Shown here: positions 1-23,841 of the stretch, piece after piece
Layout of the letters: each line of letters begins with the position of its first letter
How positions within the stretch are numbered: position 1 is the stretch's first letter
DNA from: a virus
Lineage: Duplodnaviria; Heunggongvirae; Uroviricota; Caudoviricetes
IMG/VR virus record: IMGVR_UViG_2541047874_000005
Reading direction: 5' to 3' (one strand)
DNA: 37,745 nt
Made by a program: the position numbers and the translations under genes
The notes under the pieces: generated by a model
What the model was told of the DNA's origin: nothing
The model's database searches: none
The model's input: the letters and a program-made list of their open reading frames with translations, nothing else

Positions 1-20
1 CACTGTTTATCCATACAGTT
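1..20 (+). promoter_or_regulatory. LexA (SOS) box 1 upstream of dinI-like gene
   Basis: CTGT-N8-ACAG at 3..18 (cactgtttatccatacagtt) matches the E. coli SOS box consensus. Confidence 0.65.
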
Positions 21-28
21 AAAAATAA

Positions 29-48
29 CACTGTATACAAACACAGTA
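29..48 (+). promoter_or_regulatory. LexA (SOS) box 2 upstream of dinI-like gene
   Basis: CTGT-N8-ACAG at 31..46 (ctgtatacaaacacag), 15 nt before the GAGGG RBS and ATG at 62. Confidence 0.65.
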
Positions 49-61
49 TAGAGGGACTTTT

Positions 62-310
62 ATGCGTATTGAAATCTGCATAGCCAAAGAAAAAATGACT
101 AAAATGCCAACCGGTGCTGTGGATGCGTTAAAGGAAGAATTAACCCGACGCATCAGTAAACGTTATGACGATGTAGAGGTGATCGTAAAAGCCACCAGCA
201 ACGATGGCCTTTCTGTTACGCGCACTGCCGATAAAGATTCAGCTAAAACTTTTGTTCAGGAAACTCTGAAAGATACCTGGGAGTCTGCTGACGAGTGGTT
301 TGTTCACTAA
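62..310 (+). CDS. dinI: DinI-family DNA-damage-inducible protein (RecA modulator)
   Basis: 82 aa; MRIE..IAK...LP.GA.DAL..EL.RRI and C-terminal [11 protein letters not shown] match my recollection of E. coli DinI over the full length; RBS GAGGG; preceded by two SOS boxes. Confidence 0.85.
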
Positions 311-377
311 TTAGCACGTAAAATCTGTAACGGCTGGAAATCATTCAATACTCGCACTATCGAAAGTTAACCAGCCA

Positions 378-416
378 GCCGCAGTATCCTATCATGACAA
401 GTTACTGCGGCTTTTT
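378..416 (+). terminator. Rho-independent terminator after dinI-like gene
   Basis: GCCGCAGTA (378..386) pairs with TACTGCGGC (403..411), followed by TTTTT (412..416). Confidence 0.5.
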
Positions 417-427
417 ACTTTTTATAT

Positions 428-715
428 TTAACGGATCAACATCCAGATCAGCAGACACGCCACCACCGGCACAGCAAAATCCATCAGGCTTGCTACATCC
501 CACGCGCGAGGATCAAAACCGCCCCACCACGGCATATTCATACGCTTGCCATGCCCGAACATTTCAATCCAGCGATATTCTGCCTGGGTGTGTTCACGCG
601 CAATGAAGAACGTACAACCGGCTATCGCTCCGTAAGCCCAGTTTCCGGTAAAAAGACCAACCAGAAACTGAGTGGCCACCGCACAAAGTGCATGGAACAC
701 CGGTGTTAAGTCCAT
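428..715 (-). CDS. Small integral membrane protein of unknown function, translationally coupled downstream of the tail fibre gene
   Basis: 95 aa with three hydrophobic segments; GGAGGA RBS 7 nt before ATG at 715, 2 nt after the tail fibre stop. No family recognised. Confidence 0.6.
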   Translation of the reverse strand: MDLTPVFHALCAVATQFLVGLFTGNWAYGAIAGCTFFIAREHTQAEYRWIEMFGHGKRMNMPWWGGFDPRAWDVASLMDFAVPVVACLLIWMLIR

Positions 716-717
716 AA

Positions 718-1233
718 TTATTCCTCCAGTAAATCAACACGGCGGGTAAGTGCGCTGATACTCTCTGTCAGCGCATCCACCTGGCTGACAACAGCACGCA
801 GACACCACCAGAGAAGCTCCTCTTTCCGGAAGCGATAACGGCTTCCTGCTTCGGTTGCAGGGCGAACAAGAACCCTTTCCGCCTGTCGGGTAAGCACACG
901 GGTTGTCCCGCTCAACAGCTCCCCTTCATCCGAATAAATCGCTGGCTGAACCGGAATATCTTCATACTCTTCCGGTATATCTTCGTACTGTGCCTCCTCC
1001 GCTTCCCACGAATCCAGACAAAATGCGCTGTATTTCCGCCAGTCCAGACCGTGTTTCTCCATCACGGCTATCGCGGCCTGGACTGTCGGCCCGGCGTGCA
1101 GACGCGCGTCCTCGCCCTCCTCCTCAATTCTCTGTAACCAGCGCCACACGCCCGGAAGCCGTGCTATTTCTGCAAATGCCGCGTTTTCGGCTGCCGTCGC
1201 ATCGCGCGGTGTATCCTTTAACGTCGCATCCGA
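718..1233 (-). other. Putative peptidase-S74-like autoproteolytic chaperone domain of the tail fibre (last ~171 aa)
   Basis: SDATLK begins at residue 781 (Ser codon TCG at 1233..1231 on minus strand); pattern S-D-x-x-L-K then hydrophobic helix and terminal heptad-like [17 protein letters not shown]. Confidence 0.45.
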
Positions 1234-3573
1234 CACAACGGTCGGCGAGTTGCAGAGATACACGCTCCGGAACGCTTTGTTGGGCGCACCCAGGTCGCTG
1301 GTATTGTTAACCGATGGCCGGAATGCACCGTTAATATCTGTATCCATCTGCATGAATGCAGTGCCGTCACTACGGGCTGCAATTACATAAGCGTCAGCAG
1401 AATCGTCATAAATACCCAGATTCCCGACTGTTGATACCTGGAAAGCTCCCGCCTTCAGCGTGGTGCTGATGGTCATGCGCTTCTGGGTTTCGTCATCCGA
1501 TTTAATATTCACGCCCTGCAGGTATGCCACATTCCAGCGATTTGGCGATGACCCCAGATTCATTGCCTTGTCCTGGTCGGGATGAAATGACGGCGAGACC
1601 GGACTCAATAATACAGACCAGGTTTCACTGCCATCGGTGCAATAAAGCCTTGTGCGTCCCGCCGACTGAGTATCGTTCATTGAGTAAAGGTTAATCCCGC
1701 CACCGCTCAACAAATCCACGTCAGCGCGTATTTCCAGACAATCGTGCACGGCGTTCAGTCGGTGTTTCCACTGAACGTAGCGGCCTGTGTATTCTCCGGT
1801 TCGGAACGCATCCCCGAACAAACGAAAAACAGCAGCAGAAGTGTCTGTATCCGGAGCCTCCTTTCTGACCTCAAATAACGGGCGATGCGAGCGCAGATTC
1901 TGCTCATAGGCTGCCACCTGGAAGTCTTCATTGGGTGACAGGGCAATATTTACAGCATTGGGACTCAGAAAAAGGCTGGCATGGCTGTCAGGAAACGCCA
2001 CGCCGGAGTCCACCAGATAGCCTGTGCCGTCGTAAGCCTCCACGGAAACCACAGCTTTGCTGCGTTTTGTCGCCACGCCACACGTATAAGACTTCGTGGC
2101 ATCATATTTCGTTGCAGCCGCCGTTCCATATGCTGTAGGCGTCCAGTAAGATGGATTCACCGGGGAACGGCCAGAAAAATTTGTTGCACGTGCTGCAAAG
2201 TATGCCCCCTCAAAAGAAACCACATCGGCTGTCTGACACCAGAAATCCATATCGAGCAGATACAGTTTTCCGTTATGGAGAGCCAGCCCTTCGGCTTCCT
2301 GCAAAACGGGATACCCCAGCTCTGCATTCCCCAGCATTTTCTGGCGGCCATACCTGGCACGAACGCCATCCACATTGAACTGTCTGACAACTTCGCCCGT
2401 TGACAGGTTATATACAACAATGCGGTGAGTCAGAAATACGCCTGTATAACCGTAATAAGCAAACAGATAATGACCATCGCTGGCCATCCCCTGAAATGCC
2501 TGCGACACCATTGGCTGAGTGGACAGATAAATCCGGTGTTTAAACGTCAGAGAGGCGCGATCGAAAACATAAACTGTGCGGCGATCATCCCTGTTGTAAT
2601 GAAGATGAACTGCTTCATTACTTGACTGAACAATCAACAGGCTTCCGTCTGCCGACAATGCCACCGTTATAATTTCATCCCCGGTAAAAAAGTCAGAGGT
2701 GAAAATCTCCGTACGGGTGACATCTGTCAGACTGGTGTCAGCCCCATTCCAGTTGATGATATTCACACCCTTGCCGTCAGCGGTCGGGGTATACAGCATC
2801 ACGCGACCGTCTTCACATACAGCCCCGATACTCTGGTGACCAATATCAGCGAAAACGGGAGAAAACGAAATGACCGTCGGGTTTTCGTTTTCTCCGTCAG
2901 GGTTAAATGTCGTTTCAACAATCCTTACGCCACCCGATACAGGCTGATGCAGAAACATTCTGGTTCCCTGCGGCGTATCACAGATACAGAACCCCTGGCT
3001 CATATTATCCGCGCCGTCAAAAATACCGGCGTAGTCGATATCATGAATTACTTTATGCTGGAGGGCGTCGTAATCAATGATGTCGCGGCGCAGAGAAATA
3101 TCCGCCGATCCATCAAACTCAACACCGTCAATCCTGACTGGCGTCTTAAGCTTTGATGCGGTAGCTGCGTTACCGTCCAGTTCACCAGCAACACCACCAT
3201 TGAAACTCTGCCTGCCGCTCCACGTATTTTCTGTGCTTAATAGTGGGATCTTTTCACCGCTGCTTCCTGTCTCTCTTAAACCAAGATTTTCGAGAGCAGT
3301 TTTCACTGTGCCATCCAATTTGATGTCGCCAAACGGATTCTTGCGGCTTAACAGCAGCGAACGAAGCGCGGTAAGCAGCTGGTCATGCCGCCCCTTCTCC
3401 AGGCTGGCACCGGATGCTTCCACAACACTGCAAAGCTCTTCCTGCAACATGTCAAAGTAGTCATCATCCAGATCGGTGGCAGGCGTACCGGTCTGGGGGT
3501 TGCCACGGGTAAAACCGTTCTTACCCGCGCCGAACTTATCCTTCTGCGCGGTTTTCGTGTCTATACGATGCAT
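718..3573 (-). CDS. Tail fibre / receptor-binding protein with C-terminal S74-like intramolecular chaperone domain
   Basis: 951 aa; N-terminus [26 protein letters not shown]...[12 protein letters not shown] is the conserved phage tail-fibre N-terminal anchor; sits after the gp48-like gene as in Mu; C-terminus has SDATLK (Ser/Lys dyad spacing), [17 protein letters not shown] and a terminal coiled coil. Confidence 0.85.
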
Positions 3574-23187: not shown

Positions 23188-23468
23188 TAGTGCCTCAGAT
23201 GATCAACCAGACGTGCAACGTTGCCTCTGACGGCCACCAGCACGGAAAGAAAAATAGTGTTCGCCACGATAATGGGCCATGAGGAATGGGGATAAATCCC
23301 ACAGAGATAGGCCAACGGAACAGCACTGTATGTAACAGTAATCAGCCAGGCTAAACGTGAAACCCAAGGACGATGCCGCGAATCACCACGACGATAAAAC
23401 ATCAGAGTAATAACAACACAAGCACATAACAGCGCATTTATAGTTGCTGTCGGGTCATTTAGCTCCAC
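23187..23468 (-). CDS. Holin-like/antiholin-like membrane protein
   Basis: 93 aa, 2-3 TM helices, charged C-terminus; immediately upstream of endolysin. Confidence 0.55.
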   Translation of the reverse strand: MELNDPTATINALLCACVVITLMFYRRGDSRHRPWVSRLAWLITVTYSAVPLAYLCGIYPHSSWPIIVANTIFLSVLVAVRGNVARLVDHLRH

Positions 23469-23841
23469 CTGAACCTCCCCGGCGCGTTATGAGCGCCACC
23501 AGCGAGCCGATATCCTGATTATTCAGGAACGTCAGGATTTTAACGGCTAAAGCAGAGACGATTACGGCACCAATAGCATCCAGAGGTTTATCACTGTATC
23601 CGGTCAAGTTCGCCAGCTTGGAGCCAACCAACCCAGAGCAAAGAATCCCGGCAATATATGACACGATAAAATATGCCAGTCGGCGCGATGCACTCAGATC
23701 TGCTGCTGTTGCTATGTAGAATACAGCCCCTGCAAATGCGCCAAATACAACGCCGTAATCAGTTCCGGTCAGCAGTCCATAAACACTGGCACCCGTCAGG
23801 GCACCACCAGCCAGCCCAGTACCGGAAATCGGATCGGACAT
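23455..23841 (-). CDS. Putative holin
   Basis: 128 aa, Gly/Ala-rich TM helices; first gene of the lysis cassette. Confidence 0.55.
   Translation of the reverse strand: MSDPISGTGLAGGALTGASVYGLLTGTDYGVVFGAFAGAVFYIATAADLSASRRLAYFIVSYIAGILCSGLVGSKLANLTGYSDKPLDAIGAVIVSALAVKILTFLNNQDIGSLVALITRRGGSGGAK

Follow-up and report, generated by a model that had tools for sequence, protein, structure and literature searches.

The 95-aa protein encoded at positions 428..715 on the minus strand of the analysed DNA (hereafter the window, meaning the whole stretch of 37,745 nt) is a member of phrog_1443, which by sequence comparison is a novel family in a known genomic niche, with a putative function. We class the family as sequence-novel because every sequence and profile test against known characterised families failed and no literature on it was found. 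The small gene is an autonomous cargo gene for a predicted membrane protein, and neither a part of the virion nor a fibre chaperone; this reading is based on its mobility across phages, on the existence of solitary, jumbo-phage and decayed copies, and on the lack of co-variation with the receptor-binding protein. Generic superinfection exclusion at the inner membrane is our best guess for the function, put forward tentatively and at less than even confidence, and the structural and genomic statements made below are far more secure than this functional claim.

The small gene at the end of a prophage late operon

The window is an SfV-like myovirus prophage with tail sheath, large terminase and Q-type antiterminator genes, and its own lysis genes, namely a holin (Phage_holin_8, 23455-23841), a GH19 endolysin and an Rz1-like gene, lie ~22 kb from the small gene. 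The tail, terminase, antiterminator and lysis genes are all on the minus strand; given this shared layout of the late genes, the small gene is the last cistron of a late operon of ~23 kb. It therefore closes the late (tail) operon, which depends on Q, and the SfV-like prophage is integrated beside dusA. In E. coli MIN14, a prophage that is 98-99% identical has the gene order dusA, int, dinI (plus strand), small gene (minus strand) and tailspike (minus strand), and in SfV the equivalent positions before int are taken by tfa (same strand) and gtrV-B-A (opposite strand). The features of the region are the following:

62..310, plus strand: convergent dinI-like gene, forming with the small gene a block shared with PhiR55_1
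377..412, no strand assigned: strong hairpin, 16 nt after the small-gene stop (dG -26.5, z -4.1)
428..715, minus strand: coding sequence of the membrane protein (95 aa, phrog_1443), with its stop codon at 428-430
723..727, minus strand: Shine-Dalgarno GGAGG, 7 nt before the small-gene ATG and within the last tailspike codons (from sequence and alignment)
718..3573, minus strand: 951-aa tailspike (phrog_19921, E=0), in which aa 781-843 are a Peptidase_S74 intramolecular chaperone

The small gene extends from an ATG at 715-713 to a TAA at 430-428, and its 95-aa product is MDLTPVFHALCAVATQFLVGLFTGNWAYGAIAGCTFFIAREHTQAEYRWIEMFGHGKRMNMPWWGGFDPRAWDVASLMDFAVPVVACLLIWMLIR; RefSeq annotates the same CDS of 95 aa, labelled 'hypothetical protein', in the MIN14 prophage. 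It is a genuine coding gene and not a chance ORF, because the product matches the HMM of phrog_1443 ('unknown function') with E=1.5e-56, aa 1-95 aligning with profile positions 1-95 of 97, because it has 567 homologues in a collection of 5.8 billion proteins (every one 'hypothetical', none with a Pfam domain), and because dN/dS against its relatives is low (0.1-0.2). Pairwise values lie between 0.09 and 0.3 for phage-borne and chromosomal copies alike, indicating purifying selection. Two plus-strand ORFs, at 394-606 and 551-709, were rejected as shadows of the conserved minus-strand gene. The base composition of the small gene is free of a moron-like GC anomaly.

The initial annotation had described a small membrane protein encoded directly after a receptor-binding gene and translationally coupled to it. 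Its coordinates proved exact, and the upstream ORF is a tail spike. The tailspike TAA (720-718) is separated from the small-gene ATG by a gap of 2 nt, which together with the GGAGG located 7 nt upstream makes the layout compatible with translational coupling; from this layout we infer the coupling itself. A crude scan of the minus strand over 716-1500 revealed no sigma-70-like promoter, and a search for transcript data on the small gene found none.

The tailspike gene, preceded by Mu gp48-like and Baseplate_J genes, is a mosaic of three parts: the N-terminus is SfV-like, the centre resembles phage Pollock and the C-terminus is S74. Its 5' end (approximately 100 codons) and the baseplate genes upstream of it exhibit ~95% nt identity to SfV, SfI, SfII and SfIV, and its centre (793-2496) shares 79.6% identity with the tail spike of Pollock, a phage of 68 kb. 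On the other side of the joint, megablast showed that window positions 1-715, comprising dinI and the small gene, are 96.8% identical to the lambdoid phage PhiR55_1, and the match stops at 715. The hairpin at 377-412 is common to the small gene and the convergent dinI, and its U-tract is good only on the plus strand, that of dinI. Two palindromes resembling LexA boxes (CTGT-N8-ACAG at 3-18 and 31-46) are located directly upstream of the dinI-like gene; hence, the prophage dinI is probably SOS-regulated. The MIN14 counterpart of window positions 311-427 (L144, 6880-6960) carries an 81-nt RefSeq pseudogene fragment labelled 'nucleocapsid protein', and this call, located between dinI and the small gene, looks like a spurious similarity.

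The family phrog_1443 and its predicted structure

A profile search of 1.84 billion cluster representatives yielded 399 clusters (50% identity) at E<=1e-3, all of them stand-alone proteins of up to ~140 aa (mostly ~90-130 aa) with no fusion to a longer protein. Of 5426 complete E. coli genomes, blastn detected the small gene in 2062 (38%). The copies number up to 8 per genome, the median being 2, and they are uniformly annotated 'hypothetical protein'. A scan for related loci, which used one genome per species and was built on an alignment of the closer homologues, located 52 loci in Gamma-, Beta- and Alphaproteobacteria and in Desulfobacterota.

The initial annotation could not assign the protein to a family, and we likewise matched no characterised family, only phrog_1443, which catalogues also list under the stray label 'Ybl63'. 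Homology to a characterised protein of unrelated function, sought in Pfam, NCBIfam, PADLOC and PDB, was not found in any of them. Pfam gave no more than an insignificant match to the PhoR membrane hairpin (E=0.31), shared by five of 50 diverse members, and the other matches of these 50 at E<=1 were weak, scattered ones to unrelated, mostly membrane, families; NCBIfam gave no match to the 95-aa protein, the defence models of PADLOC-DB 2.0 matched none of five family members (E<=1), and a sequence profile search of PDB returned nothing below E=1.7. Literature searches under phrog_1443, FIG00639861 and Ybl63, as well as on exclusion and tail fibres, retrieved nothing on the protein and no experiment on any member. 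The subject of the phiv142-3 paper is the neighbouring orf6, and the homologue, orf5, is not among the serum-induced genes listed there. The Gifsy defence protein GiPD474 was considered and set aside as an unrelated ATPase.

An AlphaFold2 model built from an alignment of 21 sequences (pLDDT 91.9) comprises helices at residues 4-23, 26-53 and 74-94 and an ordered loop at 54-73. The corresponding parts of the gene are:

647..706, minus strand: helix 1 (aa 4-23), with the near-invariant H8 (AlphaFold2, hydropathy and conservation)
599..640, minus strand: hydrophobic part of helix 2 (aa 26-39), with G29/G33 against G20/G24 of helix 1
497..598, minus strand: conserved polar loop (aa 40-73), made up of the amphipathic extension of helix 2, REHTQAEYRWIEMF, plus GHGKRMNMPWWGGFDPRAWD
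434..496, minus strand: helix 3 (aa 74-94), which contains D79 and P83 and is the clearest transmembrane segment

Within the polar loop of 34 residues, R40, E41 and W72 are invariant in the 50 diverse members, and over the whole protein H8, G29, Q44, A45, E46, R58, D79 and P83 are conserved in at least 90% of them; the consensus motif of the set reads GREH(A/T)QAEYRWI...G.G.R.NMPWWGGFD.R.W...S.LD..VP. In the predicted model, helices 1 and 2 are packed into a tight hairpin that turns at G24-N25, G20/G24 lying opposite G29/G33. We prefer the three-helix model because this hairpin gathers H8, R40/E41/Q44/E46 and D79 at one membrane face. Three transmembrane helices, as proposed in the initial annotation, are plausible, not certain: the AlphaFold2 model (pLDDT 92) agrees with this count, but hydropathy, which is strong for helix 3 (mean Kyte-Doolittle 2.3), is marginal for helix 1 (1.5), helix 2 possesses just 14 hydrophobic residues, and the record of phage 21 assigns two TMDs to its homologue by TMHMM. 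The mean number of K+R residues in 197 members is 0.5 in the N-tail, 0.07 in the turn, 5.4 in loop 40-73 and 0.7 in the C-tail, and the diverse set agrees. By the positive-inside rule, this distribution gives an N-in, loop-in and C-out topology if there are three helices; under the alternative two-TM model, the conserved loop would be periplasmic. Foldseek searches with the model were uninformative against PDB (best E 5.8, PsaL) and returned from BFVD only a 42-aa remnant in phage anhysbys.

Genomic contexts in phages and chromosomes

A tblastn search retrieved the family protein from 72 phage records, with coverage of >=80% in 55. In lambdoids (phage 21, PhiR55_1 and many lambda-like isolates) the order is J, lom, Stf, a 92-aa acidic protein (phrog_1361) and then the small gene, with an optional second fibre protein of 227-346 aa just before it. 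The podovirus phiv142-3 (Uetakevirus) has the small gene between the tail fibre and the lysis cassette, and in Halomonas phiHAP-1, with its P2-type tail, the gene overlaps the tfa stop and precedes the sheath gene. In each of the 88 E. coli-type loci, a fibre or spike gene lies on the same strand no more than three genes upstream (~85 with the Stf/92-aa architecture, two with a spike of the window type and one of the Uetakevirus type). In the species scan, at least 12 of the 52 loci follow fibre-type genes, including an Stf-like cluster in Escherichia, Comamonas, Pantoea and Chelativorans, and six of 42 immediate upstream genes carry S74. The temperate carriers cover three tail types, that is myo-, sipho- and podoviruses.

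The survey of homologues thus shows that the fibre or spike slot recurs, and it also brought to light solitary and jumbo-phage copies. The initial annotation had argued that such a position is typical of exclusion or receptor-modification functions. Its positional argument is strengthened by the broad conservation of the slot, since homologues follow fibre or spike genes in lambdoid, Uetakevirus, P2-like and SfV-like phages; a receptor-specific function of the Cor/Llp type is unlikely.

Alignment of the DNA of seven contexts revealed that similarity begins at the small-gene ATG and that the upstream sequences are unrelated, each of them providing a purine-rich, Shine-Dalgarno-like stretch; in one of the seven, a terminator-like hairpin lies between the fibre gene and the small gene. 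Hence, the small gene is a discrete cassette, and its tight juxtaposition with the tailspike belongs to this particular mosaic joint and not to the family. Copies that are 89-95% identical stand behind unrelated receptor-binding proteins. Moreover, in a neighbour-joining tree all E. coli copies form one tight clade irrespective of the carrier phage, from which we conclude that the small gene is independent of the receptor-binding protein.

The soluble acidic protein of ~92 aa (phrog_1361 / phrog_18574) that stands between the Stf-type fibre and the small gene is found in lambdoids of E. coli and in prophages of Comamonas and Pantoea (L002 4710-4988; L001 4026-4295; L093 5714-6001; L106 5484-5999), and it may be a chaperone of the Stf-type fibre. 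In phage 21 (L002, 5386-8835), a complete sitABCD operon for iron/manganese transport comes next after the small gene and lies on the opposite strand, which illustrates the variability of the cargo region beyond the gene.

At least 14 of the 52 loci of the species scan are solitary, flanked directly by housekeeping-type genes. Four are in Aeromonas (L091, L095, L097, L099), two of them with a Pirin gene upstream and the other two with a RIO-kinase gene downstream. In Leclercia (L096-L104), the order is GGDEF (minus strand), family gene, MetE-like gene and periplasmic binding protein. Further solitary loci (L126, L130, L132-L134) belong to Alphaproteobacteria and to unclassified Pseudomonadota/Burkholderiales MAGs, the alphaproteobacterial copies being arranged as truB-rpsO-pnp-gene-RTX, ligA-gene or gene-cfa. 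The solitary chromosomal copies are under purifying selection; in the neighbour-joining tree those of Aeromonas and Leclercia fall into genus-specific clades, and the sphingomonad and alphaproteobacterial ones into a separate clade. In Silvania (L105, 4527-5768, minus strand), the family gene has as neighbours a small phage-like ORF and the gene of an AAA_15/AAA_21 ATPase (OLD or AbiEii-like), which may represent a defence-island context.

The Aeromonas jumbo phage PS1 (L140, 4917-5180) carries an intact member of 87 aa that lacks His8 and lies away from fibre genes, flanked by an ORF of 1122 aa ('putative DNA helicase/terminase') and an HNH endonuclease gene; the length of the 1122-aa ORF may point to an inserted element. 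Related intact copies are present in other Aeromonas jumbo phages of ~235 kb.

In virulent coliphages nothing but decayed copies was seen: a Kuttervirus has a truncated ORF of 41 aa right behind its tailspike-like gene (L139 4980-5105), a T1-like phage has a frameshifted piece of 51 aa behind an S74-type fibre of 859 aa (L006 3965-4120), and the remnant in phage anhysbys is likewise a fragment of the family gene. Remnants behind the spike or fibre genes of virulent phages imply that these phages took receptor-binding cassettes from prophages and acquired the flanking gene along with them. The small-gene DNA is ~90-98% identical among the E. coli copies compared and lies directly downstream of hypervariable fibre and spike genes. 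This conserved DNA, the joints at the ATG and the remnants carried into virulent phages together suggest that the small gene acts as a downstream homology arm for the exchange of receptor-binding cassettes between temperate and virulent phages, a role that would matter for understanding host-range evolution.

Possible functions and comparison with known systems

Persistent linkage to the receptor-binding module, along with precedents for the slot, places exclusion or envelope remodelling in the lead. In relatives, the slot adjacent to the fibre or spike gene holds exclusion or conversion cargo, such as Cor, Llp, P2 Z/fun, gtr and the epsilon15 conversion genes. We propose that the 95-aa protein would act alone in the cytoplasmic membrane, where the invariant cluster of H8, R40-E41, Q44, E46, R58, W72 and D79 at one membrane face, a face that the positive-inside rule would place in the cytoplasm, could engage a host membrane component conserved across Proteobacteria. 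The lysogen or the infected cell would be guarded against incoming phages at the inner-membrane (DNA-entry) step, and the protection would be a generic superinfection exclusion and not a masking of the carrier phage's own receptor. Against exclusion, conservation of the loop is strong (dN/dS 0.1-0.3), whereas a protein binding to proteins of incoming phages would be expected to show an arms-race pattern, and carriage by myo-, sipho- and podoviruses means that a single injection machinery cannot be the target. The missing similarity to HK97 gp15, P22 SieA and the PADLOC models also counts against it, as does the failure to detect a sigma-70-like promoter that could serve expression in the lysogen. 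Furthermore, a general membrane function would account just as well for the solitary housekeeping-like copies and for the intact copies of jumbo phages.

The same residues bear on a second reading, which we rate lower, as doubtful. Here the protein would modulate a conserved pathway of the envelope, such as undecaprenyl-phosphate-linked assembly of O-antigen, ECA or capsule, or a membrane lipid, or would be a minimal enzyme in it; by remodelling surface glycans or receptors it would bring about a lysogenic conversion that is not serotype-specific. The invariant H/R/E/Q/E/R/W/D cluster at the interface resembles an active or ligand site more than an arms-race surface, and strong purifying selection and the broad range of taxa point the same way. 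The slot region corresponds to gtrABV in SfV, and epsilon15-like phages carry O-antigen conversion genes in the region after the tailspike; the adjacent receptor-binding proteins include glycan-degrading spikes (Pect-lyase fold), and solitary chromosomal copies would suit a cellular role. However, the protein exhibits no similarity to GtrA, Wzy, Oac or enzyme families, fold searches were uninformative, 95 aa would have to oligomerise in order to form a site, and the solitary copies lack consistent glycan-gene neighbours.

If the genus-specific, vertically inherited solitary copies of Aeromonas (Pirin-gene-RIO kinase), Leclercia and the sphingomonads and other alphaproteobacteria (after pnp or ligA, before cfa) are given most weight, the protein could be a general factor of host fitness or membrane homeostasis that has nothing to do with phage conflict, a beneficial moron travelling with receptor-binding cassettes only because it flanks them. 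The lack of an arms-race signature and of any match among the defence models is in line with this. Nevertheless, we regard it as unlikely: the fibre linkage, which extends over alpha-, beta- and gamma-proteobacterial phages of three morphotypes, exceeds what a random cargo slot would give, and the family gene has decayed in virulent coliphages but is retained in temperate ones. Somewhat more speculative still is a minimal, probably oligomeric membrane enzyme or regulator of ~95 aa whose invariant H/R-E/Q/E/R/W/D interface would act on a lipid-linked precursor universal to envelopes, or on some conserved machine of the inner membrane, moved with receptor-binding cassettes by all three morphotypes and repeatedly domesticated by bacteria. 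Should it be true, it would amount to an unrecognised, receptor-independent reprogramming of the cell envelope by phages, possibly with broad exclusion, in more than one third of E. coli genomes.

A membrane role late in infection, either in the timing of lysis (holin- or antiholin-like) or in preventing the loss of progeny on cell debris, seems very unlikely to us. It would agree with the position of the small gene at the 3' end of the late operon, where no promoter of its own was detected, with a small membrane protein of three predicted helices, with the adjoining lysis cassette of Uetakeviruses and with the intact copies in virulent Aeromonas jumbo phages. Yet separate holin, endolysin and spanin genes are present in the window and in the Uetakevirus relatives, the C-terminal tail of 0-6 residues with a mean of ~0.7 K+R is unlike that of holins, and the gene is dispensable and decayed in T1-like and Kuttervirus phages. 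Solitary chromosomal copies imply, moreover, that the protein is non-toxic, which also counts against a part in lysis.

An assembly or maturation factor for tail fibres or tailspikes, for example a membrane-tethered chaperone or platform, is highly improbable, even though the small gene has the same position as tfa in SfV, abuts the spike gene here and overlaps tfa in phiHAP-1, and even though the trio of Stf, ~92-aa acidic protein and small gene recurs from E. coli to Comamonas and Pantoea. The spike has an S74 chaperone of its own, one and the same protein stands behind unrelated fibres and spikes, solitary copies have no phage genes as direct neighbours, the copies of jumbo phages are located at a distance from fibre genes, and receptor-binding proteins function in virulent phages that retain only remnants of the family gene. 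A membrane chaperone for fibres is not known. The statement in the initial annotation that this is not a tail fibre assembly chaperone is therefore borne out by the missing Tfa/Pfam match, the hydrophobic protein and the self-sufficient S74 tailspike. Least probable of all is a Cor/Llp-like blocker of the carrier phage's own receptor, for which only the slot shared with cor and llp speaks, since near-identical copies stand behind unrelated receptor-binding proteins, the sequence follows the host taxon and not the type of receptor-binding protein, and the product is a predicted integral inner-membrane protein with neither signal peptide nor lipobox, in which C11 is not conserved.

Whatever its function, the phrog_1443 gene is among the commonest accessory genes of E. 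coli prophages and has no entry in Pfam, NCBIfam or the defence database. If exclusion or a change of the envelope were true, it would bear on the prediction of phage host range and on phage therapy against clinical E. coli; exclusion, in particular, would add a new sequence family to the exclusion systems based on small membrane proteins.

Among known systems, HK97 gp15 and T4 Imm-type proteins are, like the phrog_1443 product, small phage-encoded inner-membrane proteins, and they share with it a coding position as a moron-like insert in or at the end of the tail region. The gp15 and Imm-type proteins act on DNA entry and not on an outer-membrane receptor. However, gp15 has 62 aa and lies between tail genes with its own terminator, whereas phrog_1443 proteins have ~95 aa, a long conserved loop, a Proteobacteria-wide distribution and solitary chromosomal members; the hhalign comparison with gp15 gave a probability of 0.3%. 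P22 SieA, according to PMC10883804, is a prophage inner-membrane exclusion protein encoded beside structural genes. With 164 aa, its own promoter and a location on the opposite strand it is unlike the small gene, and its hhalign probability was 0.1%.

A class I holin was rejected as well, given the separate Phage_holin_8 of this phage, the location of the small gene outside the lysis cassette and the absence of a charged hydrophilic C-tail. Tfa proteins (SfV orf22, lambda Tfa) are soluble, in contrast to the hydrophobic small-gene product, although the small gene lies where SfV tfa does with respect to the fibre gene, and on the same strand; searches for Tfa, Caudo_TAP and DUF4376 gave no tail-assembly match in Pfam, NCBIfam or PHROG. 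Colicin immunity proteins of the E1 type belong to the same size class (~100-113 aa). ColE1 Imm has three membrane helices, an N-in/C-out orientation and a longer loop between helices 2 and 3. In this it resembles the architecture predicted for the small-gene product; the comparison itself covered sequence (hhalign probability 0.1%; no match to a Pfam immunity family), and the genetic context differs.

Cor (T1/phi80/N15/HK022) and T5 Llp are FhuA-specific outer-membrane lipoproteins whose genes lie directly after receptor-binding or tail-fibre genes. The small gene shares this slot, but its product is predicted to be integral, has no lipobox and does not co-vary with the receptor-binding protein; its N-terminus, MDLTPVFHALC, lacks the basic n-region and the L-[AS]-[GA]-C motif of a Cor/Llp-type signal. 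The conversion cargo of the gtrABC and epsilon15 type occupies the same region, from the fibre gene to int/attP in SfV-like phages and after the tailspike in epsilon15-like Uetakeviruses; the 50 diverse members gave no Pfam match to GtrA, Acyl_transf_3, Wzy or glycosyltransferase families (E<=1). The two also differ in arrangement: gtr genes are on the opposite strand with their own promoter, whereas the small gene continues the late operon.
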